Assembly (NCBI GenBank): GCA_051532055.1
Contig: JAOPTX010000001.1
Location: forward strand, 28,581-92,580
Origin: Fibrobacterales bacterium
Lineage (GTDB): Bacteria > Fibrobacterota > Fibrobacteria > Fibrobacterales > JAOPTW01
DNA: 64,000 nt
Reading direction: 5' to 3'
Part shown: piece after piece, positions 1-34,540 of the stretch
Position numbering within the stretch: position 1 is the first letter of the stretch
Layout of the letters: each line of letters opens with the position of its first letter
The notes under the pieces: generated by a model
The model's input: the letters and a program-made list of their open reading frames with translations, nothing else
The model's database searches: none
What the model was told of the DNA's origin: nothing
Position numbers and translations under genes: made by a program

Positions 1-1
1 A

Positions 2-1237
2 CTCTTCTGAAGCGAGGAGCTTCTGAGTCGATTGAGAACGATTGTTTTGAATAATTATGTCTTGATCTTTGAGCTTAAGAAGTTGATCCTCAATTGCCCA
101 ACCATACTCACAGTTTTCAATAACTCCTTGTAAAAAGCCAAGAGTTGCGGGTTTCCAACACATGATATCTGAACCAGATATAGATCGAGTGCTACATGCA
201 AGAAACCCTGCAAATAAAAAGGAACTCTCTGCGCCTTCTGATGCATGTATTTGAGCAAGAACTTCAAGAAGAGCTGAATCTTTTGGTTGTACAAAAAGAG
301 GTGTGTTATGTTTGTGCGAAAGTAAACTTGCTCTGTCGATAAGCTCAGTAAAGCTTGCATCAACTTCATCAAGGATAGTAATGGATGATAATGACTCAGA
401 ATAGTCTTTTAATAGTTCTTCAAGTGCTTCAAAATGATTCTCTATAGTAAGCTCTGATATCAGTATAATATGTTGCTTATTGCGTGCACGAGTCTTCTTA
501 ATAAGTTTATTAAGTGTAGTACACCAACCAGCGACTTCAAGAAGTTGGTCATTTTTAAAAAGTGCTTGGGTACTCTGTTCGATAAATGATTCGAGTTGTT
601 TGATTACCTCTTTTGCCCCTTCATTGAGGAGCTTGTACCCTGGTTCAGAACCAGCCACTGAGTCAACAAAGTTTTGAGCAGGACTATTACCAGCAGAGGC
701 TGTATTTACTTGACCGAGTATGGCGTTAATTGTGTCGTCATTCGATGTAGTAGTTTGAGTCGCAATATCAGGTATAGACGGCTGAACAACATCAAACATT
801 GCATTGATAATATCTTCTTTTGTAGAACCTTGTAATTGGATAGCCGTGAGGTCTTTATTAAAAGTCTCAAAATCAATTGTTCTATTCTGTGCATCTTTGC
901 AAATTGCAAGCGCTGCTCTCGTTTGATTGAGTAATGGAATATCAAGTTTTAAAGGTTGGGTTGTTGCTATTTCTCTTCCAGTAATAACAACGGATCCAAA
1001 AAGGTCACCACTATATAGAGGAGTCTCGACATTACAAGAAATAGGAATTGTTGCTGAGAGGCACCCTTCTATTGAAGCCAATGTTTCGTTATTGACTACG
1101 ATAGGTGAAAAGGATGAGAACGATCGAGGTAACACAATGGCATGGTGCGCCTCAGAAAGATTAGTATTTATTTTTTTCGCGGATGTCGACGGGTTTGTTG
1201 AAACACCTGTCGAGACAAAGGTCTCTTCAATTTTCAT
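2..1237 (-). CDS. Partial ORF running off the left edge (>=412 aa); putative highly diverged TssB-TssC-like sheath fusion protein
   Basis: Not in the ORF track. Manual translation from ATG at 1237 (MKIEETFVSTG...) stays open to the window edge. Segments align by eye and in order with the local TssB and TssC, e.g. VIKQLESFIEQSTQALFKNDQLLEVAGW vs QVAYIDEKISSQLDEIFHNEAFQKLESSW. The ORF is confident; the product is tentative. Confidence 0.6.
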   Translation of the reverse strand, partial: MKIEETFVSTGVSTNPSTSAKKINTNLSEAHHAIVLPRSFSSFSPIVVNNETLASIEGCLSATIPISCNVETPLYSGDLFGSVVITGREIATTQPLKLDIPLLNQTRAALAICKDAQNRTIDFETFNKDLTAIQLQGSTKEDIINAMFDVVQPSIPDIATQTTTSNDDTINAILGQVNTASAGNSPAQNFVDSVAGSEPGYKLLNEGAKEVIKQLESFIEQSTQALFKNDQLLEVAGWCTTLNKLIKKTRARNKQHIILISELTIENHFEALEELLKDYSESLSSITILDEVDASFTELIDRASLLSHKHNTPLFVQPKDSALLEVLAQIHASEGAESSFLFAGFLACSTRSISGSDIMCWKPATLGFLQGVIENCEYGWAIEDQLLKLKDQDIIIQNNRSQSTQKLLASEE

Positions 1238-1245
1238 AGAAAAAC

Positions 1246-1851
1246 CTAGTAAGAAAGTACGCTATTGACTTGAACGTCATCAATGATGGGGTCTAAAGTG
1301 GATGCAGTTTCATTAAAGAAAAAGAGATATACAAGTCCTGCAACGCCAGCAGCTCCAAGGACACCACCTGCTACTTTTAGTCCGTTACCTGATACAACAG
1401 ATGCTGATGATGATTGAAAAAATTCTTCAGAGATCATGTTGAGATTTTTGCTAATTCCGCCATCAACGTAGTTATGAGCAACAGTTACAGTTTTACCCGC
1501 AGTTACATCAAATAGTTCACAATGTACAGTAGTTGTGCCATCTTTCTTCTCAATAGAAGGAATGATGAGATAATCAGTTTCAAGAGCGGTACCAAGCTCT
1601 TTTTTACAGCTTGCTTCACAGCGAGTAGGAACCATAACGCCTTTGCGCTCAAGCATCGAGTCACGTTTGCGGAGACTCATAACGTTCACTGCGTCATTTA
1701 CGGCTAAAATGGTGATAAATCGTTCTTGGATATCTTCGATAACAGCAGAGTTTTCAATGCCTTGAGCATCAAAATCAAGTACCGATGCGGTAGGGGCATC
1801 TGCAAAAAGAGCTGAGGCTGTCAAAGTAAGTGCTACGAGTAATGAACGCAT
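1246..1851 (-). CDS. Exported protein with a CsgG/TolB-N-like domain and a C-terminal Gly-rich hydrophobic helix
   Basis: Likely start is ATG 1851, preceded by GGAG. Signal peptide MRSLLVALTLTASALFA; pattern SVLDFDA...C...C..ELG..LETDYLI; C-terminal VAGGVLGAAGVAGLVYLFFF. Confidence 0.6.
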   Translation of the reverse strand: MRSLLVALTLTASALFADAPTASVLDFDAQGIENSAVIEDIQERFITILAVNDAVNVMSLRKRDSMLERKGVMVPTRCEASCKKELGTALETDYLIIPSIEKKDGTTTVHCELFDVTAGKTVTVAHNYVDGGISKNLNMISEEFFQSSSASVVSGNGLKVAGGVLGAAGVAGLVYLFFFNETASTLDPIIDDVQVNSVLSY

Positions 1852-1963
1852 TGTATCTCCGGTGGTATAAAATTTCGAATGCCTAGTAAATATGGTTAAT
1901 TTCGGGTATTTATTCAATGAAAGTAAACGGGATATTACATGAATAGTGATGGTTTTTTGAGGG

Positions 1964-1983
1964 ATTGTGATGTGGGTCACAAT
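1964..1983. promoter_or_regulatory. CRP/FNR-family binding box (TGTGA-N6-TCACA)
   Basis: ATTGTGA-TGTGGG-TCACAAT is a perfect match to the CRP core consensus, in a divergent intergenic region. Confidence 0.55.
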
Positions 1984-2178
1984 GAGGGGATGGGGATACA
2001 TTAATTAAAGGCTTTACTCATAGGATTATAGAGCCTTTGGGCAAAAAATGTGTATCATGGAATATGAATGTAGGGACTACAAAAGGGTATTACCAGATTC
2101 AATAGAATCATTAAATGCTCTTTGGAGAGAGGGCCTTGAGTTATTACTTTTATAAAAAAACTAAAAAAGACTCAGGTT

Positions 2179-2772
2179 ATGAAATTTCTATTTGCTTCGG
2201 TTCTCTTTTCAATGATAATTGTCGGTTGTGGGAGAACTCCGGTTAAAGTTGGTAATGTTGATGAATCCAAGCTCGTTGATTGGAAAGAGATCCGTGATAT
2301 GGGACTTGAAAAATCAGTTGAGAAATATTTGGGTAAGGTTATTACTGTTACTGATTTACACTCATTAGGATTTAAGGCAAAAAATGAAGAGCGGGGGAAT
2401 GCTTGTTTAATTTCATTTAGACCACAAGAAGCTAAGAATTGGTCAAAAGAAGGTGTCTTGCCAGGGGAAGGTGATAGAATTATCACTCCTGAGGGAATAA
2501 ATGAGACAGGAATCAGTATTTTCTTTAATTATGGATCGGAAGCAGTGAGTTGGACGAAACATTCGAAAATACGAATAGATTCGACTGATAATTCAGAAAT
2601 TATTTTTCTCCCTAGTCATGACTTTTGTGGTAGGTGCCAATGGGATGAGGAAAATGATAATTTGTGCGTTGAAGAGAGTCCAATGCTTAAGGTCACCGGA
2701 AGGGTAATAGCTATGCGCTCAATGAAGGGCATTATTGGTTTAGATTTAATCCCTATAGGCTATGAATATTAA
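2179..2772 (+). CDS. Lipoprotein, copy A (possible OB-fold; candidate T6SS immunity protein)
   Basis: Lipobox IVGC; near-identical paralog at 3267-3860; KYLGKVITVT...LKVTGRV resembles tRNA_anti-like OB-fold lipoproteins. Confidence 0.75.
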   Translation: MKFLFASVLFSMIIVGCGRTPVKVGNVDESKLVDWKEIRDMGLEKSVEKYLGKVITVTDLHSLGFKAKNEERGNACLISFRPQEAKNWSKEGVLPGEGDRIITPEGINETGISIFFNYGSEAVSWTKHSKIRIDSTDNSEIIFLPSHDFCGRCQWDEENDNLCVEESPMLKVTGRVIAMRSMKGIIGLDLIPIGYEY

Positions 2773-2814
2773 GGCTCTCAAAACTTACTCATATAATTAG
2801 TTATCCTTATGATC

Positions 2815-3130
2815 TATGAGTTCGGGCACAATTTTTTCTAGAAAAACCTTCTTGTTAGTTAAAACAGTTTTTAATAAATACTAATCGATCATTTTTTAGG
2901 GGGGGGCTGGGGAATTACAAGAAATACTTTTCAATGTTCTTTGGTGTATATTGAGAAAAGATCGCTAGATAATTAGTGGCTCACTCCATCTCTGCTTCAG
3001 AGTGCACCTTTAGATTTTACATATATTGATCATAAAAACATAGTATACTCGTTTTTTGCACTGAATATAATTTCTTCGCCCATCCCCCTTTTTAGTCTTT
3101 TCTTCTATCCATCTTGTGAAACTTAATATG
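2815..3130 (-). pseudogene. Decayed fragment of the 3' end of the 1179-aa gene (4093-7632)
   Basis: Minus strand reads NLKVHSEAEME*ATNYLAIFSQY, versus NLKAHSEAENEWGTNDLEVFPQF in the intact gene. Nucleotide similarity to ~4096-4400 with stops and indels. Confidence 0.85.
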
Positions 3131-3266
3131 ATTGTAATGGTCCTATATTTACCTCTTTCTATATACAGAGGATTCGGTCTCTATTAGGCTCTGGTTATAA
3201 GCTATTATAGTTGCAACCCATATTGATATTATTACATTTAAACAAAACTCTTCTAATGGATTAATA

Positions 3267-3860
3267 ATGAAAAAGTTAATTGCTCTTTTAATTGTATCAA
3301 TAGTATTGATTGGCTGTGGACGTACACCAATACGTGTTGGTAATGTTGATGAATCCAAGCTCGTTGATTGGAAAGAGATCCGTGATATGGGACTTGAAAA
3401 ATCAGTTGAGAAATATTTGGGTAAGGTTATTACTGTTACTGATTTACACTCATTAGGATTTAATGCAAAAAATGAAGAGCGGGGGAATGCTTGTTTAATT
3501 TCATTTAGACCACAAGAAACAAAGCGATGGCAACGTGAGGGATTATCACCTAGTGAAGGGGATTGGGTCGTTACATCTGAAGGCATTCATGCTACTGGAT
3601 TCAGTATTTTCTTTAATTATGGATCGGAAGCAGTGAGGTGGACGAAACATTCGAAAATTCGTATAGATTCGACTGATAATTCAGAAATTATTTTTCTCCC
3701 TAGTCATGATTTTTGTGGTAGGTGCCAATGGGATGAGGAAAATGAGAATTTGTGTGTTGAAGAGAGCCCAATACTTAAGGTCACCGGAAGGGTAATAGCT
3801 ATGCGCTCAATGAAGGGCACTATTGGTTTAGATTTAATCCCTATAGGCTATGAATATTAA
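3267..3860 (+). CDS. Lipoprotein, copy B (candidate T6SS immunity protein)
   Basis: Lipobox LIGC; 197 aa paralog of 2179-2772; convergent with the 1179-aa gene. Confidence 0.75.
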   Translation: MKKLIALLIVSIVLIGCGRTPIRVGNVDESKLVDWKEIRDMGLEKSVEKYLGKVITVTDLHSLGFNAKNEERGNACLISFRPQETKRWQREGLSPSEGDWVVTSEGIHATGFSIFFNYGSEAVRWTKHSKIRIDSTDNSEIIFLPSHDFCGRCQWDEENENLCVEESPILKVTGRVIAMRSMKGTIGLDLIPIGYEY

Positions 3861-4029
3861 TCTATTGGAATTATAGAGAAATTTACACCTAATATAATTG
3901 TAAATCGATCGAATTTTTTGTGGAACAATATGATGGTTGGATTGTTACTCAAAGGATAATTAAGATTTTTTTTACAATGCTTCAGCGGTTATTCGATAGA
4001 CAAAACGATTGAATTGTAGAATTGATGGC

Positions 4030-4070
4030 TCTATGGTTCGAATATTAGTCTTAAATATTCGAACCATAGA
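4030..4070. terminator. 17-bp perfect inverted repeat between convergent genes
   Basis: TCTATGGTTCGAATATT-agtctta-AATATTCGAACCATAGA. Confidence 0.7.
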
Positions 4071-4092
4071 ACTGTGTATTCGTCTTAAACAA

Positions 4093-7000
4093 TTATTTAT
4101 GAGCTAAGGCAATTTTTTCAGAAATGATAAAGCGTTCAGTTTTGTCTCCATCACCATCATCCTCTTTGTGACAGCCCACAAAAAGGTACTCTTCTCCATC
4201 TTTCAAGGCAAACTGCGGAAAGACTTCCAAATCATTCGTACCCCATTCATTTTCCGCTTCAGAGTGCGCCTTTAAATTGTGCATTTTATTTATATCAAAT
4301 CCAATTGTAAACTGGTTTTGAGTATTAAGTACAATTTCTTGTGCAATCCACTCTTTAGCTTTTTCTTCTTTTCCATCCATTTGACGGTATTTAATAGGGT
4401 CATCGCCTCGTAAAACAAAAGTATCATCTTCTCTCAGGCGAATAAATATTTTGGTATCATTGAAGTTCTTAACAGTCACATCCCAATATATCATAGAGCT
4501 TTTTGTACGTGAAGTATTAAGTTTACAGTTAACAAGTTCTGGGAAGTACAATTTCAGATCAGCTTCCAATTTTCTTTCCGGAGCTTTATCATCAGGGTTG
4601 ATCCAAAGATTAATTTTTGAATATTCACCCTGAGCATCTTTAGAACGCCCTTTTGAGCAATACTCCAATAGTTTTCCAAGGTCAAGGTCTTTACCTGTTT
4701 CACTGTCCTTTTGTACTTCTCTAACGTACTGAGAGCCTTGAGAAAGAGTAAATTCACTTCTTAACCAGTTTTTAAATTCATCATAAGTGTCAGTATCAAT
4801 GTTTTTTTCATCAACACACGAGATATTTTTAACTAATGCATCTTTAGTTGTTTCCCCATTCTCTGTACCATAAATTAAACCAGTACCTTTGCAATTACTT
4901 AATTCGGTGTATCCTGCATACCATTGAATGGAATCACCCCATTTAATTCCGGCAGTAGGAGTTTGCCATAAATAACTATTAATAGTGAAACGCCCTTCTC
5001 CAAATCGAAAATAATAACTCGGCACATTAAGAGTATTACCCAAAAATTTTGCTTCTCTAAGTAACACCGCAGTACCTTTATCGACTTCAACAAGGTTTGC
5101 ATTGGCAACACTTGTTTGCCAGCTTAGAATACTGATCTGGGCAAAAGCAGGTGCATTAAACGAAAGTTTCAATAGAGAAGGATCAAACCCCCACCGGCTC
5201 TTTTCTTTAGGATCAGTTTTAGTATAATCCATTTCAAATTCAACACCGGCGACTGCATCTAATTTAAGTGCAGCACCAATATATACATGGACATCAATCC
5301 AACTAAATACTTCCTTAATGATATTGCCCATTTGAAAATTAGTTTTGTCGTCTTCTATACCATGTTTCATAGCATCTGGTAGAACGTCCTTACCATTTTT
5401 CTTTTTATAGGCGCTTCCTTTGGCTCCTGGCATGCTAGAGAGTTTTCCCCAAGCTGCATGGAGGTCAAGTGTGACTGAAAATTCAGAAAGGCCTTCTGCT
5501 TCATTGCCACGAAGGCCGAAGCTCATTTTCATTTTGTCGAGGTGTTTTTCAAAAAGAGAAAGCTCTGCTCCACCAGCATTTTTTGCTTTATCTAAAAGAG
5601 CTTTTTGCTCTTTTGCAGTCTTGGCATCTTTCCAGGTGAGCTCGAATTCAACGAAGGCTTCGATTTTAGCTTTAAGTTTTAATATAACAGCATATATTAA
5701 CCATTGCATATAGGGAATGGGAAGGGGACGGCCTATTGGAGCGGGGAATTGTTTGATTTTTTCCCCCTCAATAAGAGGAAAGGTGATTGGTATTTTAGTC
5801 ACCTTCTCAGCTTTCATCACACTTTGTGTAAATGAGGCAAAAACACCACGAGCCATTTTCCCAGCAGAATCTCTATCGGGTTTTTTCCAAAAAGGCTTTT
5901 TCTTTCCTTCCATTAAATCTTGAAATTCTTGGGCTTCTTCTTTACGGGTTTTTAAATGTTCAATATAATGGGCGGGTGTTTGACAGAGCATCAAATCGGT
6001 TATTTGATCATAAAGAAATTTGGTAAAACCATAGGTTTTAGGATGCTTTTTTTGAGCGTTATCCATTGTATCAAAGAATTTCTTGGATAAATTTTGTGCT
6101 TGCTTTAAGACCTCTTTTTCATCCCATTTTTTAGGGGCCTCTCCTTCCTTGGGTAATTTTTTTGATTTTTCGTCTCCAAATTCATTGAATCCCCAAATGG
6201 CGAAACTGGTAAAAACTTCAGATGCCTTTAAAAATTTCATGAGATCAATCACTTGATCAGAACACTCTTTTGCTATCTCACTATCTGATTTAACTTTACC
6301 TGGTTTTTGCTTGTAGTTCTTAATAAGGTGTTCCGAGTAAGCTTGAGCAAACCTGTTTATAATGACCCAAACAATAGAAGTCCCAAACCATATGGCAGGA
6401 TTAACTGAATGCTCTTTCTCGGTTTCTTTTGTAAGCTTTTGAAGCTCTTTATCCATATTTTCAAGAGCTTCAATCATGTCTTTAGGATAGAGTCCAACAT
6501 AAAGGAGGTTTTTTCGTTTCTTTTCTCCGTCGTCGCCCTTTTCTATCTTATAATCTGTAAGTCTTGCACGTCTCCATGAATGATTAGGAGCAAGCTGTGG
6601 ATTGTAGGTTTTTGTTCCGGGAACACCTTTGATGGCATCCTGACTATTCATGCTATCGACAATTCCAACAGCGTCATTATCCTCAGGATTCATCTCCCAG
6701 GGAATGTCGGGGTTTCGTGCCCATACTTTAAGCCAGCACCCACATTCAAAATGGTCAAGATACTCTTTACCTGCTGCGATACTTGATTCATTCCGAGCTG
6801 CGACAAGTTCTTTAAATTCTTTTTTGGTATATCGGTTTTTGACAATTGCATTCAGTTTATACCGAATAATTCCTTTATCGCGATCCGATTCATCAAGCAT
6901 TACTTTAAGCTTACTGTCAACTACGCCACCACTAATAAATGGATCTGCTTTTATAGCAGGTGAACCATTATTACCCAAAATTTTAGCTTCGAACCAACCT

Positions 7001-7632
7001 GAACGGGGGGCATCATCAACTACAAATCCATTGTTAATGGCTCGTCTACTTTTGTTCCCACCTATGGTGGCTGGTTGTAAAAAGGCCCAAACATCAACAT
7101 TGGGATAAATAGTTGAGCCGATGAATGTTGATGATGAAATTTCTACTATAATCCATTGTTGTACAGCATTAACAATTTTTCCAACTACCAATCGTTCTTC
7201 TCGGTTCTCTTCTTTTTCAGCTTCGACATGTGCCCAGGGTGCACCGAGTTGTTCGTATTTCTCAGGCTCTTTTTTAGACGAATCAAAAAAGAATAAATCA
7301 TCGTACATATATGAGTTGAACTTATTTGGGAAGAATTTCTTCATGAAATCTTCTTTTTCTTCCTCCTCTAAAGCTTTTGATTGCTCTAACATAGCTTGAC
7401 GCAATGTTTCGGTGGTATCATCTTTTAAATGATCAGGTTCAAAAGGCGAAACAAAAATTTCAGAACCCATTTTTTTGAAATCATCTAAATCAGGTTCATG
7501 GAGTTTTGGTAAGGATGCTTTATGAGTGAAATCATTATCATCCTGATTATTCCAGAAAATCTTAACTGAGTTCCACCCACCTTTTCCTGTAGGTTGCTTA
7601 ATAGATGTTGAAGTAGAGTTTGAATTTGACAT
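4093..7632 (-). CDS. 1179-aa protein of unknown function; candidate T6SS cargo effector
   Basis: Last gene of the DUF2169-PAAR-LysM operon; no signal peptide; one hydrophobic stretch (PAIWFGTSIVWVII); beta-rich C-terminal half; no catalytic motif recognised. Confidence 0.6.
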   Translation of the reverse strand: MSNSNSTSTSIKQPTGKGGWNSVKIFWNNQDDNDFTHKASLPKLHEPDLDDFKKMGSEIFVSPFEPDHLKDDTTETLRQAMLEQSKALEEEEKEDFMKKFFPNKFNSYMYDDLFFFDSSKKEPEKYEQLGAPWAHVEAEKEENREERLVVGKIVNAVQQWIIVEISSSTFIGSTIYPNVDVWAFLQPATIGGNKSRRAINNGFVVDDAPRSGWFEAKILGNNGSPAIKADPFISGGVVDSKLKVMLDESDRDKGIIRYKLNAIVKNRYTKKEFKELVAARNESSIAAGKEYLDHFECGCWLKVWARNPDIPWEMNPEDNDAVGIVDSMNSQDAIKGVPGTKTYNPQLAPNHSWRRARLTDYKIEKGDDGEKKRKNLLYVGLYPKDMIEALENMDKELQKLTKETEKEHSVNPAIWFGTSIVWVIINRFAQAYSEHLIKNYKQKPGKVKSDSEIAKECSDQVIDLMKFLKASEVFTSFAIWGFNEFGDEKSKKLPKEGEAPKKWDEKEVLKQAQNLSKKFFDTMDNAQKKHPKTYGFTKFLYDQITDLMLCQTPAHYIEHLKTRKEEAQEFQDLMEGKKKPFWKKPDRDSAGKMARGVFASFTQSVMKAEKVTKIPITFPLIEGEKIKQFPAPIGRPLPIPYMQWLIYAVILKLKAKIEAFVEFELTWKDAKTAKEQKALLDKAKNAGGAELSLFEKHLDKMKMSFGLRGNEAEGLSEFSVTLDLHAAWGKLSSMPGAKGSAYKKKNGKDVLPDAMKHGIEDDKTNFQMGNIIKEVFSWIDVHVYIGAALKLDAVAGVEFEMDYTKTDPKEKSRWGFDPSLLKLSFNAPAFAQISILSWQTSVANANLVEVDKGTAVLLREAKFLGNTLNVPSYYFRFGEGRFTINSYLWQTPTAGIKWGDSIQWYAGYTELSNCKGTGLIYGTENGETTKDALVKNISCVDEKNIDTDTYDEFKNWLRSEFTLSQGSQYVREVQKDSETGKDLDLGKLLEYCSKGRSKDAQGEYSKINLWINPDDKAPERKLEADLKLYFPELVNCKLNTSRTKSSMIYWDVTVKNFNDTKIFIRLREDDTFVLRGDDPIKYRQMDGKEEKAKEWIAQEIVLNTQNQFTIGFDINKMHNLKAHSEAENEWGTNDLEVFPQFALKDGEEYLFVGCHKEDDGDGDKTERFIISEKIALAHK

Positions 7633-7634
7633 AG

Positions 7635-23262: not shown

Positions 23263-23273
23263 AGGAGAGTATA

Positions 23274-25279: not shown

Positions 25280-25330
25280 TAACGGCTTATGTTTTGATTG
25301 ACTTCATTTGAGGTCTATCACCTACATTCA

Positions 25331-25380
25331 GGTCTGTCGCGTGTGTCAATTATTGGCAATACTCGGCAGGCCCTTTTTTT
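25331..25380 (+). terminator. Long hairpin plus T-run after hcp
   Basis: GGTCTGTCG...CGGCAGGCC stem with G-U pairs, followed by TTTTTTT. Confidence 0.75.
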
Positions 25381-25397
25381 AATGTGAATAGAGAACT

Positions 25398-25838: not shown

Positions 25839-27603
25839 TTTCTTACATTATTATCAGGAAGAACTTCGCTATCTCAGTGACTCAGGAAAAGAGTTTGCTG
25901 ATCGATACCCTGATGTTGCTCACTACCTGAATATGTCTGCAAATGAGGATCGTGACCCGTATGTGGAACGTCTTTTCCAAGGTTTTGCTTTTTTAGGTTC
26001 CCGAATACAAGAGAAACTCCATGACGATTTTCCCGAAATAACTCACAATGTAATGGAGATGGTTGCTCCTGACTATTTAAGAGCTTTTCCATCTATAGCA
26101 CTGGTAGAGTTTAATTCTCCCCGTGGTATGCTTCCTCAGAGCTCAACTATAGTGAAAGGGACAGAAATACTATCAAACCCTAAGCCTGGTGTACCAAAAC
26201 CGTGTAAGTTTCAAACGACACAAGAGGTAGAAATACACCCTTTACAACTCAAGCAAACAACCGTAGAACATTCTGCACTTCATGGCTCAGAGATTAAGCT
26301 TTCTTTTGAAATTGAAGAAACTGTAGAACCAGCTGATTTACTTCTTGAGCATCTTGATCTATATCTTTCTGGTGAGGATGATATTGCCTGGTCTCTGCAC
26401 TATTTCTTAACAAATTCTATTACGGAAGTTATCTATAATGGAGAAGGAAAAACGGAGATATTTACACAGAACTGTACAGTGGTTCCCACTTTGAACTTAA
26501 TGACAAAGATTTTGCCGGAAAAGTCATCGATATTCTCCAACAGTCACTTGCTCCGTGAATATTTTTGTGCGATCGAGAAGTTTCGTTTTGTACGGGTAAA
26601 TAATCTTAATTGTGTCAAGCGATTGAATAGTGCTCGATCTTTTACACTGACCTTTAGATTTTCAGAAAACCTCCCCGATTCAATAGTACGCAAAATAAGT
26701 AATGAACATTTTAAGCTTTACTGCACTCCCGTAGTCAATATTTTTGAGCATGATGTAGACCCAATAACAATTAATAATAAACACTTTGAATATATAATTT
26801 ATCCTGATAATAATAATGACAAAGAGGTGTATAGTATAATTGATGTTTCAGGTAGGGGTAAGGCAGCGCATGAAGTCTTTAGAGCTTATGAACCGTATCA
26901 CAATTTTAGACATGCAAGTGCATCTAAAGGAACCGCTGCACAAGGTTTTACTTACGCAATTAAGCAGGAGGAGAAACGAGGTGGTGGTAAAAATAGCCTT
27001 ATTACTATAGATCGGCATGGGGGTATTCGCCATTATAAAGATGAATTTCTCTCAATTAAAGCTTACTGTACAAATGGTTTATTGCCTAGAGAAAAATTGA
27101 TGCAGAAGGATATATGTAATCCTGTACCTGGATTTCCTGATTTTTTCAAATTTTCAAATTTTACGCGGCCTACTCCTGTGATTCCTTCTGTACAAGAAAA
27201 ACACTATTATTGGAAAATTCTCAATCAGTTTAATATGAATATTAAGACACTCTGCAACGTTAATACATTTAAAGAGGTATTAGATTTATATGCTTGGGGT
27301 GTTAATGAAAAACAAAGAAAATGCATTGATACTATCGATACTGTAGAATGTAGCCAAGAAGCATTTTTTGACAAAGGTCATTTTGTTAGAGGAACTAAAG
27401 TAATGCTTTCTTTGGTTGATCCACAGTGTCAACGCTCTTCTTATGAAACATTATCACAGTATCGTTTACTCGGGGAAGTACTTAACCTTTTTATTAAAAA
27501 CTTTGTTTCAGCAAGTTATTTTGTCTCGTTAACAGTTATGGTGAAGCCTGTAATGATTGAGTTTGAGTGGCAACCCGGGAGGGCTCTATGTCACACAATT
27601 TAG
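25831..27603 (+). CDS. tssF: T6SS baseplate TssF
   Basis: YYQEELRYL...DPYVERLFQGFAFL; LREYF; LYCTPVVNIF; CTNG.LP. Confidence 0.95.
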   Translation: MADFLHYYQEELRYLSDSGKEFADRYPDVAHYLNMSANEDRDPYVERLFQGFAFLGSRIQEKLHDDFPEITHNVMEMVAPDYLRAFPSIALVEFNSPRGMLPQSSTIVKGTEILSNPKPGVPKPCKFQTTQEVEIHPLQLKQTTVEHSALHGSEIKLSFEIEETVEPADLLLEHLDLYLSGEDDIAWSLHYFLTNSITEVIYNGEGKTEIFTQNCTVVPTLNLMTKILPEKSSIFSNSHLLREYFCAIEKFRFVRVNNLNCVKRLNSARSFTLTFRFSENLPDSIVRKISNEHFKLYCTPVVNIFEHDVDPITINNKHFEYIIYPDNNNDKEVYSIIDVSGRGKAAHEVFRAYEPYHNFRHASASKGTAAQGFTYAIKQEEKRGGGKNSLITIDRHGGIRHYKDEFLSIKAYCTNGLLPREKLMQKDICNPVPGFPDFFKFSNFTRPTPVIPSVQEKHYYWKILNQFNMNIKTLCNVNTFKEVLDLYAWGVNEKQRKCIDTIDTVECSQEAFFDKGHFVRGTKVMLSLVDPQCQRSSYETLSQYRLLGEVLNLFIKNFVSASYFVSLTVMVKPVMIEFEWQPGRALCHTI

Positions 27604-28583
27604 AAGAACAGTTAATTTCGGAGTCTTACGACTATAACTTTTTTCAGTCAGTGCACCTTATTGAACGCTATTTAGTAAATCAAGCATCTTCAAATAGTTT
27701 TCGTTCAAGTATGCGAAACAGAGAGCTTATACAATTCAAAACTGATAATACCATATCTTTTCCTGGTAATGATGTTGTAAGTGTTGTGAAAGATCCGAAG
27801 AGTGGAGGCTATACTCTGGCTCTCTCATTTATGGGACTTTATGGAGTCTCATCACCACTGCCATCTTATTTCACCGAGCCTCTCAATAGAGGCCGTGAAG
27901 AGTTTGCGCCTCTCAGAAAATTTCTAGATATCTTTTCACATCGTGTATATTCACTTTTCTATCAATCTTGGAAAAAGTATCGGTATCAGATACAGTACAA
28001 TCCTAAACGCCCTGATGATTATTCAAAGGCGCTCTATACCCTCATTGGTCGTACTTCACAGTCGACCCATGCACCAGAAACTCCAGAATATCGAAAGGAG
28101 ATGGCTCGCCTATCTCTTTCTAAACAAGTCTTTCAAAGAGTACGTTCGTCGGCCAATCTTAAACGAACACTACAACACTATTTTGCATTTCCAAAAGTTG
28201 TGGTACAACAATTTGCTCCAAAGGAAATTACTAATCCTGCACCATGTACTATCGGAAGCTCTCGGGCAATATTGGGTGGGTCGGTATTGGGAAGTACAAT
28301 AATTGATCGCACAGGGGCTTTTCAGGTAGATATTGGCCCTTTGTCTCATACACAGTTTCAACGTTTTCTCCCAGATGCTATGGGGAAACTTGGAGTACTC
28401 CGTGGTGAAGTTAAAAAACTCGTTGATGAGTTTTTAGATGCACCACTAGAATATGGAATAACAGTTGCTTTGGATCATACGGATACAGAATGTATGGAAA
28501 AAGTAACCACACTTGGTAGTGGGGCATTGGGGTGGAATACCTGGCTCGGCTTACCTAATGAAGAAATTACACTTAACCTTTAG
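27567..28583 (+). CDS. tssG: T6SS baseplate TssG
   Basis: YNFFQ.V, FMGLYGVSSPLP, FLDIFSHR...W.KYR, LGWNTWLG. The start may be ATG 27588. Confidence 0.95.
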   Translation: MATREGSMSHNLEEQLISESYDYNFFQSVHLIERYLVNQASSNSFRSSMRNRELIQFKTDNTISFPGNDVVSVVKDPKSGGYTLALSFMGLYGVSSPLPSYFTEPLNRGREEFAPLRKFLDIFSHRVYSLFYQSWKKYRYQIQYNPKRPDDYSKALYTLIGRTSQSTHAPETPEYRKEMARLSLSKQVFQRVRSSANLKRTLQHYFAFPKVVVQQFAPKEITNPAPCTIGSSRAILGGSVLGSTIIDRTGAFQVDIGPLSHTQFQRFLPDAMGKLGVLRGEVKKLVDEFLDAPLEYGITVALDHTDTECMEKVTTLGSGALGWNTWLGLPNEEITLNL

Positions 28584-28591
28584 AGGAACCT

Positions 28592-31327
28592 ATGATCTCA
28601 GCAAGTATTAAAAATATTCTTGAAAAACTAAATACACTTTCTAAAAAGAATTTGGAAGGAGCGCTTGGAGCTTGTGTGACCAGAGGTCACTATGAAATAA
28701 CCACGATGCATTTTATCGCACAGTGTCTCGAAGATAGCTCTGGTGATCTCATGGAAATTCTTGATTTCTTTAAAGTGGACCCCAACTTATTTAGAAAAGC
28801 ACTAAATGAAGAACTTAAAGAGTATCAATCAGGGAATTCGGGAAAACCTGTTTTTTCACCCTCCTTCTTAAGTACACTAGAATTAGCATGGAGTGAAGCG
28901 ACACTTAATTTGAACTGCCTAGAAATCAGAACAGGATCAGTAGTCGTTGCACTCAGAAAAAATATGAATCTCGTGCCAGAAGGGCTTCAAGATTATTTTA
29001 AATTGATTCAAGCAGAAACACTCGTAAATCAATTTGGTGAAATAGTTGCAGCTTCACGTGAAGGCCAAGCGACTAAACACTCAACAAGTAAAGATGATAA
29101 TATTTCTGAGGACTCATTTTTAGGTACTTACACAGAAGATTTCGTAGCTTTTGCTAAGACAGGTAAAATTGACCCTATTTTTGGCAGAGATGATGAGATT
29201 CGTCAGACAATAGATATTTTGTCTCGTAGACGTAAAAATAACCCAATTTTTATCGGAGAAGCAGGTGTTGGTAAAACCGCTGTAGTTGAAGGTCTTGCCC
29301 TTAAAATTGCAGAGGGGGATGTTCCTGATGCCCTTAAAGATGTTGAATTGAGAAGTCTTGATATGGGAACTCTTTCGGCAGGAGCTGGTGTTCGTGGTGA
29401 ATTTGAAAACCGCTTGAAAGGTATTATTAATGAGATAAAAGAGTCTGATAAACACATCATTCTTTTTATTGATGAAGCACATACTATGATTGGTGCGGGT
29501 GGTGAAGCAGGAAAGAACGATGCTGCGAACCTATTAAAACCAGAACTTGCACGGGGTGATCTGAAGTGTATAGCGGCTACAACTTTTACTGAGTTTAGAA
29601 AATATTTTGAAAAAGATCCAGCTATTGCACGTAGATTTCAAGCGGTTACAATTGCAGAACCTGATCCAGAGTCTGCTGCAATAATGTTGAGAGGCCTTCG
29701 TGAAAAATATGAGGACTTCCATGGAGTTAAAATTTCTTATGAAGCAGTTAAAGCAGCTTGTGAATTTTCCAATAAATTTATTGCAGGCCGTCAATTACCC
29801 GATAAAGCAGTTGACCTTTTAGATACTGCTACAGCGCGTGTTAAAATGGGTCTTAAAACCAAGCCTGCGGCGTTACAAAATCTTGAACAAAGTATTTCGA
29901 ATCTTCAAATTGAGATTAAAACTCTTGAGAAAGATTTGAATGCAGGAATTCTTCTTGATGAAACACAACTCACAGATGCAAAAGGTCGCTTTGAAAACGC
30001 TCAAACAGTTGCAGCGACACTTACTAATGAGTGGAGTAAAGAGCTAGAACAAGTTAATGCAATTATTGCCTTTGAAGAAAAGGTTCAAGCGGCATCAGAT
30101 GCGGATAAGCCAGCTTTAAGAGCTGAGTTGAAAGAATTGTGGAAGGCACTTGAAGAAATTCAAAATGAAAAACCATTAGTACATGCCCACGTTACTCCTG
30201 CAGTTGTTGCACAAATTATTGAAGAGTGGACTGGAATCCCTGCTGGTAATATGATGAAATCAGAGGCAGCGACGCTTCTTGAACTTGGAGAAACAATCAA
30301 TAGACGTGTTATTGGTCAGCCCTGGGGAGTTGCCGAAATATCAAATACTATTCGTTCTGGTAAAATGGGCCTTACTAAAGCTGAAGCACCAATGGGTGTT
30401 TTTCTAGTAACCGGACCATCTGGTGTTGGTAAAACTGAAGTAGCACGTACAATCGCCGATCTAATGTTTGGTGGTGAACGTTCAGTAGTGACTATTAATA
30501 TGTCTGAATATCAAGATAGTATGTCCGTCACCCAATTGAAAGGTGCAAGTGCTGGTTACGTTGGTTATGGTGATGGTGGTATACTTACAGAGGGCGTTCG
30601 TAAAAACCCATATACTGTAGTTATTCTCGATGAAGTTGAAAAAGCGCATAAAGATGTATTGAACATGTTTTATCAGGTATTTGATCAAGGTATACTTAGA
30701 GATGGGGAAGGACGTGATATTAATTTCCGTAATACCGTTATTTTGATGACAAGTAATTTAGGTACAGATACTATCTGTAATATGGCTGTGGATGAAGAAA
30801 ACGATTATGAATATGGTGAATACTCAGAAGCAATAGTTGATGAGCTCACAGCGCACTTTGCCCCAGCTCTTTTGGCGCGATGTAAGGTTGTTCCATTCTT
30901 GCCTTTAGGATATGATTCACTACAAAAAATTATTGCTATTAAACTCAATAAAGTAGCGAATACTCTCATGAATACTCATGGTGTCACACTTGCGGTATCA
31001 CCAAAAATTATTGAGAAAGTAGTTAACCAGTGTACTCTTATGCAGTCTGGTGCACGTAACATTGATACTATTCTTGATCAACAGATTTTACCGGAAATTT
31101 CTAAAAACCTTTTGATTAATGTTGCTGATGAAAAAGTTGTAACACACCTCTTTATTTCAGTTGATGATGAAGGGCACTATCAGTTCTATTTTTCTGAAGG
31201 TGATTTTGATGCTCCTGAACTCAATGAAAATATTGAAGAAGTTGAGAATGAAATAGAATTGACTTCGGAAGAAAGTTCCGAAGCAGAACCTGATGCAGTC
31301 TCTGAAGAGACTACTGATGCACAGTAG
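28592..31327 (+). CDS. tssH: T6SS AAA+ ATPase ClpV (TssH)
   Basis: Two Walker A motifs (GEAGVGKT, GPSGVGKT), RRRKNNP, GYVGYG.GG.LTE. Confidence 0.96.
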   Translation: MISASIKNILEKLNTLSKKNLEGALGACVTRGHYEITTMHFIAQCLEDSSGDLMEILDFFKVDPNLFRKALNEELKEYQSGNSGKPVFSPSFLSTLELAWSEATLNLNCLEIRTGSVVVALRKNMNLVPEGLQDYFKLIQAETLVNQFGEIVAASREGQATKHSTSKDDNISEDSFLGTYTEDFVAFAKTGKIDPIFGRDDEIRQTIDILSRRRKNNPIFIGEAGVGKTAVVEGLALKIAEGDVPDALKDVELRSLDMGTLSAGAGVRGEFENRLKGIINEIKESDKHIILFIDEAHTMIGAGGEAGKNDAANLLKPELARGDLKCIAATTFTEFRKYFEKDPAIARRFQAVTIAEPDPESAAIMLRGLREKYEDFHGVKISYEAVKAACEFSNKFIAGRQLPDKAVDLLDTATARVKMGLKTKPAALQNLEQSISNLQIEIKTLEKDLNAGILLDETQLTDAKGRFENAQTVAATLTNEWSKELEQVNAIIAFEEKVQAASDADKPALRAELKELWKALEEIQNEKPLVHAHVTPAVVAQIIEEWTGIPAGNMMKSEAATLLELGETINRRVIGQPWGVAEISNTIRSGKMGLTKAEAPMGVFLVTGPSGVGKTEVARTIADLMFGGERSVVTINMSEYQDSMSVTQLKGASAGYVGYGDGGILTEGVRKNPYTVVILDEVEKAHKDVLNMFYQVFDQGILRDGEGRDINFRNTVILMTSNLGTDTICNMAVDEENDYEYGEYSEAIVDELTAHFAPALLARCKVVPFLPLGYDSLQKIIAIKLNKVANTLMNTHGVTLAVSPKIIEKVVNQCTLMQSGARNIDTILDQQILPEISKNLLINVADEKVVTHLFISVDDEGHYQFYFSEGDFDAPELNENIEEVENEIELTSEESSEAEPDAVSEETTDAQ

Positions 31328-31335
31328 GAGGATTT

Positions 31336-33489
31336 ATGAGTTCTGCAGATACCACAATCTATAGACTAACTGTTTCTGGACTTCCTGAAGATCAGTTTAC
31401 GGTACTCTCATTTTCTGGAATTGAAGAAGTTGCTATAGGATATAGTTACAAGGTAGTTGCCATTAGCAATGAGACTGACTTGAGTTATGATGAGCTTATA
31501 GGAATTCAAACCTCATTTGAAGTTAAGATAGCTGACGAAGCAATTTTGCACCATGGCATAATCACTGAAATCGATGAGGAACCTTTCATCGACAATAGAG
31601 CTCAATATACTTTGACTATTGAACCGAAACATTCACTGCTTAAGTATACCACTCAAAGTAGAATATTTCAGGAAATGAGTGTGCAAGAGATAGTGCAAGA
31701 AGTACTTGAAGGTGCTGGGCTCACATCAAATGATTTTTCATTTGAATTAAATGGGAGCTATGATCCATTAGAATTTACTGCTCAATACAATGAGTCTGAC
31801 TTTAATTTTATTCAGCGCCTAATGGAGTATAATGGAATTTACTATTTCTTTGATCATGAAGGCGACTCAGAAATTTTAAAAATTTGTGATGACAATGCTG
31901 CGTTTGGAGAAATGCAACTTGAGGCGCAACTCCGTTATCAACCAAATGCGGATATGGTTACACCAGAGCTTAATACTGTTCGATCCATAAATCGTCAGCG
32001 CAAAATGGTAACTGGCAAAGTTACTATGAAAGATTACAATTATTCTCAACCTGAGACTAATATTTTTGGAACTGCTGAAGCAGATGTTGGAGTAGGAGAG
32101 TTTTATCAGTTTGCTGATACAATGGGTACTACTGACCAAGCAAACTCACTTGCTACTTTACGTAAGGAGATGTTAGTTTGTCGTAAAGATGTGATCAGGA
32201 TTCGCTCGAGTTGTCATCAAATTAAATCGGGATATCAATGTACAATTGATGACGATGGTATTTATGGGTTTGATTCAGACTATCTTGTTCTTCGTGTTGA
32301 ACATCGAGGTTCACAAGAGGCTTCTGTTTTAGGTGAAGGTGCTGCTACAGGATATATGAATGTATTTCACTGTATTGATGCATCAGTAACTTTTAGACCT
32401 ATGTTTACTGTTAAAAAGCCTAAAATAGAAGGGCTTATGACGGTGAAAGTTGATGGGCCAGAAGATGATTATGCTTATTTGGATGATACTGGGCGCTATA
32501 AAGTCAAAATGCCGTATGATCTTTCCGACGCTTCAGATGGAACTGCGAGTCTTCCTGTACGTTTATCCCAACCTTATTCGGGGAGCAACTACGGAATGCA
32601 CTTTCCTGTGCACATGGGTTGTGATCTAGTTATTGGCTTTGAAAATGGGGATATTGATAAACCTATAGCTGTAGGTACAGCACCAAATCCATCTCAAAGC
32701 TCACCGGTAAGTAGTGCAAATAAGAGTGAAAGTATTATTAAGACCGCTTCTGGGCATCAGTTTCGTATGGATGACCTTGAAGATAAAACTAAAATTGATT
32801 TGATGACTACTGGTGGACATAATCTTGAGTTCAATGATGATGCAGAAATGCAACAGATTAAGATTACTTCAACGGGTGAACATCAGGTATTGATTGATGA
32901 CACAAATGAAATGATTATCATTAATACCAAAGAAAATAAATCGACCATTACAATGGATAATCCCAATGAGTTTACCTCTATTGAGACAGCTACCGGACAT
33001 CTTATTAAGATGGATGATGCAAATGAGCTTATTGCTATTCAAAGTGGTGCAGGCCATGCTATTCAGATTCATGATGGTGATGGTTTAATTACATTGCAAG
33101 ATGCTGATGGTTCGCATGTAATTCAGATAGATGCTTCAGGTACTATAAGTGTAACTACGAGTGGTGATATCGAAATGAAAGCAGATGGTGCCATTAATAT
33201 GGATGGTGATGAAGTAAATATTACAGGCCATTCTGCAGTAAATATTACATCTGATATGGGAGATGTTGCCATTGAAGGCATGAACCTTAATGCTAAAAGT
33301 TCTGCTGGTGATGTTGCTATAGAGGCAGCAATGAATGCAAATCTTAAGGGCGGTATGAACCTTGCATTAGAAGGTGGATTAAATCTTGAGGCTAAAGCAG
33401 GACTTGAGGGTAAATTTACTGGAACAATGGTGACCACTGAAGGCTCAGCAATGATGACCGTCAAAGGTGGTTTGGTAATGATAAACTAG
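31336..33489 (+). CDS. vgrG: T6SS spike VgrG (TssI) with gp5-like beta-repeat C-terminus
   Basis: SRIFQ, QYNESDFNFIQRL, DYNY, GMHFP...F.NGDIDKP; repeated T..GH...DD units; ends KGGLVMIN. Confidence 0.95.
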   Translation: MSSADTTIYRLTVSGLPEDQFTVLSFSGIEEVAIGYSYKVVAISNETDLSYDELIGIQTSFEVKIADEAILHHGIITEIDEEPFIDNRAQYTLTIEPKHSLLKYTTQSRIFQEMSVQEIVQEVLEGAGLTSNDFSFELNGSYDPLEFTAQYNESDFNFIQRLMEYNGIYYFFDHEGDSEILKICDDNAAFGEMQLEAQLRYQPNADMVTPELNTVRSINRQRKMVTGKVTMKDYNYSQPETNIFGTAEADVGVGEFYQFADTMGTTDQANSLATLRKEMLVCRKDVIRIRSSCHQIKSGYQCTIDDDGIYGFDSDYLVLRVEHRGSQEASVLGEGAATGYMNVFHCIDASVTFRPMFTVKKPKIEGLMTVKVDGPEDDYAYLDDTGRYKVKMPYDLSDASDGTASLPVRLSQPYSGSNYGMHFPVHMGCDLVIGFENGDIDKPIAVGTAPNPSQSSPVSSANKSESIIKTASGHQFRMDDLEDKTKIDLMTTGGHNLEFNDDAEMQQIKITSTGEHQVLIDDTNEMIIINTKENKSTITMDNPNEFTSIETATGHLIKMDDANELIAIQSGAGHAIQIHDGDGLITLQDADGSHVIQIDASGTISVTTSGDIEMKADGAINMDGDEVNITGHSAVNITSDMGDVAIEGMNLNAKSSAGDVAIEAAMNANLKGGMNLALEGGLNLEAKAGLEGKFTGTMVTTEGSAMMTVKGGLVMIN

Positions 33490-33499
33490 GGTTAAGAGT

Positions 33500-34540
33500 A
33501 TGTGGCAGACAACACTTATCCCTGGCTATAAACCAGATGGTACACCGATATTGAGTGTACTAGCTAAAGAAACCTATCGCTATACCAATGGGACAATGGC
33601 TGAAGTTGATACTGATGCCCCCATTGAACTCTACGAAGAGGATAGTTATTATGGTGAAGGGGACCCCACAAAGGACCCTTTAAAACATGAATCGGACCTT
33701 GTAGCTTTTAAGCCATCAACTGATGTGATCTTTATTGGTAAGGCAGAGTGCCCGAATGGTAAAAAAGCACGGTTTTTTGATTTAACCGTGGCGGTTAATG
33801 AACTTTTTAAGACGGTTCGGGTAATAGGGAACCGCACAGCGTTAGTAACACCTTCGGGTCTTACCTTTTCGGAGCCAGAACTTTTTGAGTCGATGCCTCT
33901 TCATTTTGGACTTGCGTATGGTGGTTCTGATAGTGAGTCAGACCCTGAGTATGACTACGTATATGCTCCTAATCCAATAGGGAAGGGTTATATTATTAAA
34001 AATAATCCATTAGTTCTTCATGGGTTGGAACTTCCCAATCTTGAGGACCCTCATCACTTACTAACTCCTGATTCATTAGTTCTTAAAAACCACGAACGTT
34101 GGAAGACTATGCCAGTACCGTGTGCTCTTGGATATCGATCAAAGCATGGAATCGATCGGATGATGCTGATTCAAAAAGGTGTTGAGCCGGGGAGAGAAGG
34201 CGATGCTGATATAAAAGGATATGTACATCCTTCTTTTTATAACGGTGCATCGATGGAAATGACTTTGCCTTTGCTGCAAGGTGGTGAACGTATTACTATG
34301 ATGTATATGGACCCTGAACATCCTAAGTTTCACTTTCAGTTGCCCGCTGAACAACCTATGCTCTGGCTGAATACTGGAATAGGAATCCGTGAAGCAAAAG
34401 CAACTCTCCAAACAGTTGAAGTTTATAAACCGACGAATCAGGTCACACTTCTTTGGCGTGGTGAATTTGTATACCCTGGTCCAGAGGCCTTTGGTTCATT
34501 TACAGCTCTTGAATATGGAGCTACTACAGTAATTAATTAA
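33500..34540 (+). CDS. DUF2169-family T6SS accessory protein (paralog of 9825-10910)
   Basis: ESDLVAFKPSTDV, LAYGG, NPIGKG, LPNLEDP, FYNGA, LLWRG. Confidence 0.9.
   Translation: MWQTTLIPGYKPDGTPILSVLAKETYRYTNGTMAEVDTDAPIELYEEDSYYGEGDPTKDPLKHESDLVAFKPSTDVIFIGKAECPNGKKARFFDLTVAVNELFKTVRVIGNRTALVTPSGLTFSEPELFESMPLHFGLAYGGSDSESDPEYDYVYAPNPIGKGYIIKNNPLVLHGLELPNLEDPHHLLTPDSLVLKNHERWKTMPVPCALGYRSKHGIDRMMLIQKGVEPGREGDADIKGYVHPSFYNGASMEMTLPLLQGGERITMMYMDPEHPKFHFQLPAEQPMLWLNTGIGIREAKATLQTVEVYKPTNQVTLLWRGEFVYPGPEAFGSFTALEYGATTVIN

Follow-up and report, generated by a model that had tools for sequence, protein, structure and literature searches.

The DNA analysed here, called the window, comes from a marine Fibrobacterales bacterium that is uncultured (genome 5.17 Mb in 181 contigs, 94% complete) and whose closest named relatives are metagenome-assembled genomes (MAGs) labelled Fibrobacterales bacterium; it covers the final 64 kb of a contig 92.6 kb long. 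We found that the window's part up to position 34540 encodes a genuine and well-supported lineage-specific type VI secretion system (T6SS) variant of subtype i (T6SS-i), with several undescribed accessory proteins. As a whole, the locus is probably best explained as the sole T6SS-i of the genome, without TssJ and equipped with an envelope module, a sheath paralogue and a swappable cargo; the roles inferred for these parts are discussed below.

We scanned with Pfam and NCBIfam every open reading frame (ORF) of at least 100 amino acids (aa) in window positions 1–40345, 26 ORFs of the T6SS locus among them. A canonical T6SS-i has 13 core genes, including tssJ. The core cluster described in the initial annotation was confirmed: 12 of the 13 core genes are intact and lie on the + strand at 15341–34540, together with a gene for a DUF2169 protein:

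15341–16660, + strand: TssK (Pfam E 5e-84)
16681–17298, + strand: TssL, short form (Pfam E 7e-26)
17316–20912, + strand: TssM (IcmF-related E 4e-29)
21052–22704, + strand: TssA, ImpA_N plus VasJ type (VasJ E 2e-58)
22738–23262, + strand: TssB (Pfam E 9e-51)
23274–24755, + strand: TssC (Pfam E 9e-132)
24812–25279, + strand: Hcp (Pfam E 2e-33)
25398–25838, + strand: TssE (Pfam E 2e-14)
25831–27603, + strand: TssF (Pfam E 6e-120)
27567–28583, + strand: TssG (Pfam E 5e-67)
28592–31327, + strand: ClpV/TssH (Pfam)
31336–33489, + strand: VgrG, the sole VgrG of the genome (Pfam E 3e-66)
33500–34540, + strand: DUF2169 protein, copy b (Pfam E 2e-46)

By its core genes the system is a T6SS-i type machine, with canonical tube, sheath, baseplate, ClpV and spike. 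Against solved sheaths, TssC scored 499 bits with V. cholerae VipB (E 1e-148), 482 bits with M. xanthus TssC and 399 bits with P. aeruginosa TssC1. TssM is very divergent; it reached only 26 bits against the solved TssM of enteroaggregative E. coli (EAEC), and its IcmF_C match is below threshold. Genome-wide searches found one VgrG, one PAAR gene and one VipB-family gene, and the locus in the window is therefore the only T6SS of the genome.

The core gene that is missing encodes TssJ, a short, poorly conserved outer-membrane lipoprotein. No TssJ had been visible in the initial annotation, and the genome-wide search bears this out, as neither PF12790 nor TIGR03352 gave a single match at E<=1 in the host's own 94%-complete genome. 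In the phylum set of 296 Fibrobacterota genomes, a sheath (VipB) match was found in 115 and a Pfam TssJ match in only 4, so that 111 of the 115 sheath-positive genomes lack one; many of the 296 genomes are incomplete, which limits the TssJ counts. The absence of TssJ is a trait of the phylum and not of the host genome alone. It is conceivable that a cryptic, highly divergent TssJ is encoded at another place in the genome, assembled or not, with the accessory genes being additive helpers. The shortness and poor conservation of TssJ would fit this, as would the state of the assembly and the fact that E. coli was the only control genome in which PF12790 reached its cut-off. We nevertheless consider it quite improbable, given that two independent hidden Markov models had no match, that the gap extends over 111 of 115 sheath-positive genomes, that the core cluster holds no unassigned ORF and no gap big enough for TssJ, and that the sole small conserved secreted protein of the locus, o149 (see below), has a PelC/LptE-like model and no conserved lipobox. 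T6SSs without TssJ are already known, for example in Acinetobacter, where TslA/TsmK compensate and the peptidoglycan hydrolase TagX is needed; how the outer membrane is crossed there without TssJ is stated to be unresolved (accessible part of PMC12949010).

Upstream of tssK, the window carries a flank which is part of the T6SS and consists of a conserved envelope module and a sheath paralogue:

13528–15225, − strand: PEGA/barrel/FGE-like protein, 565 aa from a GTG at 15225 (ORF open to 15270)
12599–13516, − strand: SBP_bac_3-like periplasmic protein with a coiled-coil tail (PF00497, E 2e-16)
11777–12295, + strand: NlpC/P60 lipoprotein (PF00877, E 3e-29; lipobox FIGC)
11119–11568, − strand: o149, periplasmic protein of 149 aa with a predicted PelC/LptE-like fold (AlphaFold2 and Foldseek)
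1246–1851, − strand: g251, periplasmic protein of 200 aa that has a signal peptide and is anchored in the membrane by its C-terminus (ORF open to 2001, likely start Met51)
2–1237, − strand: g442, predicted fused, truncated TssB–TssC-like paralogue of 442 aa (G000:C1:28492-29817)

The protein encoded next to tssK has a signal peptide and a middle region that lies between a PEGA domain and a short FGE-sulfatase domain. It had been annotated as a barrel/FGE protein. The FGE assignment stands (PF03781 at residues 402–493, E 9e-15); the barrel is the weaker part, as two of the 14 family members have a PF13557 match in the middle region (best E 1e-6). The PEGA match of the protein itself reaches 20.7 bits, just under the cut-off of 20.8, and within the family PEGA was found in 11 of 14 members and FGE in 9 of 14. 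A profile of the family run against the Protein Data Bank (PDB) matched only a 30-residue FGE motif and no barrel. The protein could not be identified as PorK/GldK, since TIGR03525 gave 32.6 bits against a cut-off of 350, through a short motif only. A word-based homologue search in 5.8 billion proteins returned 12 matches, five of them full-length.

We compared the distribution of this gene with that of the T6SS, using the PEGA-plus-barrel part of the protein for the phylum-wide search. Matches were confined to family f1, which holds the host and a second genome of the same genus (G238), and to the related families f5, f6, f7 and f8; they were full-length in 34 of 38 genomes and partial in G245, G260, G265 and G269. 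Among the 53 genomes of these families, the barrel gene was present in 38 of the 40 that are VipB-positive and in 0 of the 13 that are VipB-negative, and the two VipB-positive genomes without it (G242 and G261) are 78–79% complete. (The unpublished genome G253 is counted throughout; without it each positive co-occurrence count drops by one.) In genus g29, VipB was found in only two of 12 genomes, G269 and G274, and the same two alone have the barrel gene. The gene lies on the same contig as VipB, at a distance of ~8–10 kb, in 21 genomes; it is divergent from tssK in 10 of the 11 fetched loci of f1 and f5–f8, and divergent from clpV in the remaining one (G274). The alignment revealed two forms of the protein: one PEGA domain, barrel and FGE domain in f1 and f8, and two PEGA domains and barrel with no FGE domain in f5 and f7. 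Because the cysteine pair of the FGE-like domain of f1 is not conserved in f8, catalysis by this domain is, judging from the alignment, unlikely. In G244, an FHA-SLT protein (FHA fused to a lytic transglycosylase) and a Ser/Thr kinase with extracytoplasmic Big_2 and PEGA domains are encoded beside the barrel gene and tssKLM (L026 11053-14450); the PEGA domain of this kinase is of the same type as that of the barrel protein.

Possibly, the barrel protein resides in the outer membrane, its PEGA β-sandwich and FGE-like domains extending into the periplasm, and replaces the lipoprotein TssJ by fixing the TssM channel to the outer membrane through these domains. The barrel protein would then be the outer-membrane dock that TssJ gives elsewhere, an assignment which we make tentatively and rate a little short of an even chance. 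A model of the C-terminal 329 residues of TssM in complex with the mature barrel protein, which counts neither for nor against this role, had a median score of 0.37; the control with an unrelated chain 1 gave 0.64.

The module of the PEGA/barrel/FGE and SBP-like proteins might instead be an envelope sensor that times or places T6SS assembly, like TagQ/TagR/TagST, which lie upstream of PpkA in the H1-T6SS of P. aeruginosa. TagR belongs to the FGE superfamily and is a periplasmic protein which is held at the outer membrane by TagQ and whose FGE domain binds PpkA (available sections of PMC13713981); SBP_bac_3 domains bind ligands, the barrel gene of G244 lies beside the PEGA-bearing kinase and the FHA-SLT gene, and in G045 a g442-like gene is grouped with FecR/LysM, CHASE2 kinase and FHA-SLT genes. 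However, we detected no Pkinase, PP2C or FHA domain in the 26 ORFs of the locus with Pfam, and a search aimed at the rest of the genome, which covered FHA-SLT only, found none. Moreover, f5 and f7 have no FGE domain, and their barrel gene nonetheless adjoins tssK; the module is coupled tightly to tssK and not to regulators. We regard a sensor as the main rival reading, though an unlikely one, and keep the outer-membrane dock as the preferred role of the barrel protein.

The other envelope genes follow the T6SS as well. The SBP-like gene comes directly after the barrel gene in f1 and f8, and the position of the NlpC/P60 gene is kept in all four fetched f8 loci. The lipoprotein encoded by the latter is a candidate dedicated peptidoglycan endopeptidase; it would locally open the cell wall, like TagX or MltE. 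The o149 gene was found in 25 of the 77 genomes of the class set, all of them VipB-positive (f1 2/2, f4 12/20, f8 11/12, f5–f7 0/39); the word-based search gave two homologues of its product. For g251, which has a weak TolB_N match (E 0.11), orthologues (E<=1e-42) were found in G238 and 11 T6SS-positive genomes of f8, where they immediately adjoin the orthologue of o149; other genomes often have weaker matches to the g251 domain. All four fetched f8 loci preserve the gene order g251-like, o149, NlpC, SBP, barrel, with clpV-vgrG adjoining g251 and with the barrel end of the block divergent from tssK. That the flanking genes belong to the T6SS had been proposed on their content, and the relatives agree with it twice over: barrel (38 of 40 against 0 of 13), o149 (25 of 25) and g442 (25 of 25, see below) co-occur with VipB, and synteny is conserved, with the envelope block kept in 4 of 4 f8 loci and the barrel gene divergent from tssK or clpV in 11 of 11 loci.

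The AlphaFold2 model of o149 has a predicted local distance difference test (pLDDT) score of 88.6 and shows two long helices packed on a four-stranded sheet. Its best Foldseek matches are PelC (5t11, E 5e-5), Cj1090c and LptE, with no chain of TssJ, whose fold is a transthyretin-like β-sandwich, among the matches listed. Across 10 aligned homologues no lipobox cysteine is conserved, and eight of the 10 lack any cysteine in the signal-peptide region. As the o149 gene of f4 genomes is found just upstream of tssK, we had tried its product as a hidden TssJ; its PelC/LptE-like alpha/beta model, together with the missing lipobox, suggests that it is probably not one, and this candidate was dropped. 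It may rather be the periplasmic partner of the barrel protein, as PelC is to PelB and LptE to LptD.

The initial annotation also listed a second, fused sheath-like gene, and this was upheld by the predicted fold of g442 and by its TssB-like N-terminal part. The ORF extends 90 nt past the window start, which leaves the last 30 codons outside the window. By sequence, g442 is elusive: it has no Pfam match even at E<=10, PF05591 (VipA) and PF05943 (VipB) included, BLASTP against TssC gave nothing significant, and a g442 profile found no sheath among PDB sequences. A word-based search returned three homologues and a profile search among 1.84 billion representatives 14, none of them TssC; a search for related loci with a four-row g442 alignment found only the MAG of the same genus. 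In the ESM Atlas, a protein-language-model look-up, the top clusters were fused VipA+VipB proteins of ~500 aa (score 0.93, 24 of 30 matches). The AlphaFold2 model, built from a 14-row alignment, has a pLDDT of 80.5 and a predicted template modelling score (pTM) of 0.74. All 23 Foldseek matches at E<=1e-3 are contractile sheaths, with VipB (3j9g) at the top (E 1.3e-6). VIA-align placed residues 204–442 of the model on VipB 61–365 (Z 17.2, root-mean-square deviation 3.6, 238 residues) and aligned residues 28–442 with the single-chain sheaths of AFP, PVC, pyocin and the Streptomyces contractile injection system (CIS) at Z 14–15.5. The TssB-like part comprises residues ~28–150; hhalign matched TssB at E 6e-4 over 73 columns with a probability of 29%, and TssC with a probability of 2.7%. 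The g442 family profile also weakly matches the TssB genes that adjoin VipB in six f13 genomes. The model has no equivalents of VipB 1–60 and 366–492, and the C-terminal gp25-like domain (PF18945), which the window's TssC carries at residues 378–489, is absent. On the strength of this model, g442 is a fused, truncated TssB–TssC-like sheath paralogue.

Strong g442 matches were found in 25 genomes (two in f1, one in f5, one in f6 and 21 in f7), all VipB-positive, and none in f8 or f4. In genus g29 they are again limited to G269 and G274, the two genomes with VipB. The gene lies outside the T6SS cluster in all families but f1; in f7 it is followed by an FHA-SLT gene in all six fetched loci. FHA-SLT genes are also found inside T6SS loci, beside barrel/tssK in G244 and beside tssA in G016, and are absent from the host's own genome, where the wall enzyme encoded in the cluster is the NlpC/P60 protein. 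In another genome, G045, a 539-aa distant g442-like gene heads a set that further comprises FecR+LysM, CHASE2 Ser/Thr kinase and FHA-SLT genes (L051 9631-16423), which suggests a phospho-signalling module tied to sheath-like proteins.

The C-terminus of TssC (HsiC) is needed for polymerisation (accessible part of PMC3597794). As g442 lacks the TssC N-terminal segment and the gp25-like domain, we favour the speculative view that it caps, nucleates or limits the length of the sheath rather than building it. The same two losses, the lack of any Pfam match and the position of the gene outside the T6SS cluster in f5 and f7 could also be read as signs that g442 is the decaying remnant of a sheath gene, duplicated or foreign, which no longer has a role in the T6SS. 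Such decay is very improbable, as g442 is an open, full-length frame in 24 of 25 genomes (G269 has only fragments, on one contig) with a tblastn identity to the window's protein of 17–27% in the seven fetched f5/f7 loci; furthermore, its fold is predicted with confidence, it occurs only in VipB-positive genomes, including two of the 12 of g29, and it has a fixed FHA-SLT partner gene in 6 of 6 f7 loci.

Several points weigh against the reading of the locus as a TssJ-less T6SS-i with the barrel protein as its dock. Only two of the 14 family members have the Pfam match from which the barrel fold is predicted, and neither the barrel nor any other accessory protein is tied to TssM by a supported interaction model. 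A small, divergent TssJ elsewhere in a genome that is 94% complete would, if it existed, supply what the barrel is proposed to replace. The T6SS-positive families f11–f18, which belong to other classes, and f4 have neither a barrel homologue nor a Pfam TssJ, and the barrel thus cannot be the phylum's general answer to the loss of TssJ. Families f5 and f7 are without o149 and the FGE domain, and f8 is without g442, so the accessory set is modular and not one fixed machine. Finally, the related genomes are not independent, and the co-occurrence counts therefore overstate the support. A wider proposal, which we regard as rather doubtful, is that this class of Fibrobacterota rebuilt the outer portion of the membrane complex of its T6SS, with the PEGA barrel (and, in some families, a PelC/LptE-like partner) in place of TssJ and g442 as a new component for capping, nucleating or limiting the sheath, the latter being connected in sister lineages with Ser/Thr kinases and a lytic transglycosylase fused to FHA.

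Between o149 and g251, which adjoin each other in f8, the window contains an inserted cassette, which was analysed next to its counterpart in G238:

9825–10910, − strand: DUF2169 adaptor, copy a (PF09937, E 1e-55)
8744–9835, − strand: PAAR protein with an Ig-like C-terminal domain, the sole PAAR gene of the genome (PF05488, E 9e-20)
7635–8744, − strand: 369-aa protein with a sub-threshold LysM motif, candidate co-effector or chaperone
4093–7632, − strand: 1179-aa orphan protein, candidate T6SS effector (cargo)
4030–4070: hairpin (stem of 17 bp) that separates the convergent genes of o197b and the 1179-aa protein
3267–3860, + strand: o197b lipoprotein, candidate immunity protein (lipobox LIGC)
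2179–2772, + strand: o197a lipoprotein, candidate immunity protein (lipobox IVGC)

The cassette had been described as a PAAR–LysM–giant cargo module; the PAAR gene, the second DUF2169 gene and the 1179-aa gene are there, and the LysM did not hold, as its match of 18.9 bits is below the cut-off of 20.9. Two Pfam families, PF09937 and PF05488, thus lie beside variable cargo genes, as in DUF2169–PAAR loading modules; the two DUF2169 copies are 47% identical. The 1179-aa protein has no Pfam, NCBIfam or PDB sequence match, and the 369-aa protein belongs to no family at threshold and gave nothing useful in the PDB search. The 197-aa proteins o197a and o197b are near-identical and arose by a tandem duplication with a period of 1088 bp; one joint of a metatranscriptome contig goes back 1088, as expected if it spans this repeat. 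Compared with G238, the core and accessory genes are 85–100% identical, DUF2169 copy a 98% and PAAR 88%, against partial matches of 28% for the 1179-aa protein (residues 116–485 only), 29% for the 369-aa protein and 27% for the lipoprotein. By these comparisons the cassette has the pattern of an exchangeable effector/immunity unit. The PAAR protein and the DUF2169 adaptors would load the 1179-aa orphan effector on the single VgrG, and the two lipoproteins would shield the producer's periplasm. As the candidate immunity proteins are lipoproteins, they suggest a toxin that acts in the periplasm. The 1179-aa protein and its lipoprotein partners are a candidate effector/immunity pair without a recognised domain.

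Two further ideas about the locus were abandoned. The first tied the flank to the core by shared CRP-like boxes, whose frequency turned out to be at chance: TGTGA-N6-TCACA with at most two mismatches was matched 36 times against 37.2 expected, and with at most one mismatch six times against 3.05 expected, a number reached by 10 of 100 shuffles. Sites with one mismatch are present between o149 and NlpC and between tssM and tssA, and one site is perfect:

1966–1981: perfect palindrome TGTGATGTGGGTCACA, upstream of the likely g251 start

Scans for sigma-70 promoters and terminators were likewise at chance level. The second idea was that the region is an island in the sense of a mobile element. 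The guanine-plus-cytosine content is even across the border (0.35–0.43 inside and 0.35–0.42 outside, with no compositional break), and no integrase or other mobility domain was found with Pfam among the window ORFs scanned; as T6SSs are widespread in the phylum, 'island' is to be read as 'locus'. In a metatranscriptome from the probable source sample (X2), contigs matched 27 of the 30 bins of window positions 1–20000 at an identity of at least 99% (31 of 32 contigs), the three empty bins being uninformative; the share in run X3 was only 0.07. These contigs hint at expression, with DNA carry-over possible because the organism is covered ~500x in the matching DNA run and there is no silent control stretch.

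Beyond the window, a gene for a 2369-aa adhesin with 18 Big_9/cadherin-like repeats (L002 11260-18369) lies upstream and is convergent on the sheath-like gene; it marks the left end of the T6SS locus. To the right of the locus, 35575–38252 encode two small Cys-rich secreted proteins, one of 103 aa and one of 181 aa whose signal is lipobox-like, followed by MbnB/DUF692 (E 4e-96) and DUF2063, a layout which we take to be that of bufferin-type, metal-binding operons for ribosomally synthesized and post-translationally modified peptides (RiPPs). In the two f4 T6SS loci, G090 (L027/L028) and G087 (L032), tblastn with the window proteins found only o149, tssK, tssL, tssB and tssC; no TssM, TssA, Hcp or TssE/F/G was found around tssBC in the 36.5 kb fetched from G090 or on the whole 15.6-kb contig of G087. 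These f4 genomes may have a split T6SS or a highly divergent one. Weak VipB matches (E 1e-38 to 1e-15) in open frames of ~580 aa were seen in other classes (G078:C123, G072:C58, G015:C63, G005:C8 and others); they may represent another sheath type or a second contractile system.

We compared the locus with known contractile systems. The H1-T6SS of P. aeruginosa (T6SS-i3) has the same gene order, tssA-B-C-hcp-E-F-G-clpV-vgrG plus a tssK-L-M block. A further common feature is an FGE-superfamily periplasmic domain with a tie to the outer membrane, which TagQ provides for TagR (available sections of PMC13713981). In contrast to it, the locus lacks TssJ, Fha, PpkA, PppA, TagF and TagST among the 26 ORFs scanned, its FGE-like domain, which does reside in a secreted protein as in TagR, is fused to PEGA and barrel instead of being held by a lipoprotein, and its sheath is nearer to those of V. 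cholerae and M. xanthus than to TssC1. The likeness to Acinetobacter lies in a TssJ-less T6SS-i with lineage-specific envelope factors and a peptidoglycan endopeptidase encoded in the cluster (accessible parts of PMC12949010 and PMC13584744); TslA, TsmK and TagX are, by their description, apparently unrelated to the set in the window, and the gene order differs. The TssNOPQR proteins of the Bacteroidota T6SS-iii are another answer within the Fibrobacteres–Chlorobi–Bacteroidetes (FCB) group to the lack of TssJLM (accessible part of PMC10781749), whereas the system in the window retains TssK, TssL and TssM.

The window's true TssC is a close relative of VipB in V. cholerae VipA/VipB (3j9g, 5mxn), and g442 shares the sheath core fold with it; unlike VipA/VipB, g442 joins TssB-like and TssC-like parts in a single chain of 442 aa. 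Extracellular contractile injection systems (eCISs) resemble the locus in having more than one sheath-fold protein in a contractile machine. Their paralogues Afp2-4 and Pvc2-4 are encoded side by side and, as far as is known, all polymerise, whereas g442 is truncated and encoded apart from tssBC. Finally, PelB–PelC and LptD–LptE resemble the locus in that a small alpha/beta periplasmic protein of the PelC/LptE fold, here o149, is encoded beside an outer-membrane barrel protein. In distinction from PelC and LptE, the o149 homologues have ordinary signal peptides without a conserved lipobox cysteine, and their pairing with the barrel is putative.

Some elements of the locus are already known, namely T6SS-i without TssJ, DUF2169–PAAR cargo modules and FGE-like domains in T6SS proteins, the last as the protein-binding module of TagR and in FGE-like immunity proteins (accessible part of PMC13713981). 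In the literature, supplements aside, we came upon no account of T6SS proteins of the PEGA/barrel or PelC/LptE-like kind, nor of any fused sheath paralogue, and in the accessible part of a 2026 review of T6SS accessory factors (PMC13584744) the terms barrel, PEGA, formylglycine, NlpC and sheath-like never occur. The only mention of a T6SS in Fibrobacteres that we found concerns Chitinispirillum alkaliphilum, reported to have one (accessible part of PMC4814513). The view of the initial annotation that this is a lineage-specific T6SS variant in an uncatalogued arrangement is thus supported, as the flanking genes co-occur with the T6SS in relatives and no catalogued subtype with this gene set was found in the literature.

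If the proposed roles are true, the locus would represent a third independent solution to the TssJ problem, after TssNOPQR of Bacteroidota and TslA/TsmK of Acinetobacter, and the first T6SS with a dedicated third sheath-family protein. Together with ~40 related genomes, it offers phylogenetically supported candidates for a barrel protein, a PelC/LptE-like protein, a wall hydrolase and a sheath-fold protein. The ESM Atlas connects g442 with fused VipA+VipB proteins that form larger, unannotated families in Acidobacteriota, Pseudomonadota and Myxococcota, and its role may therefore reach far beyond the phylum.

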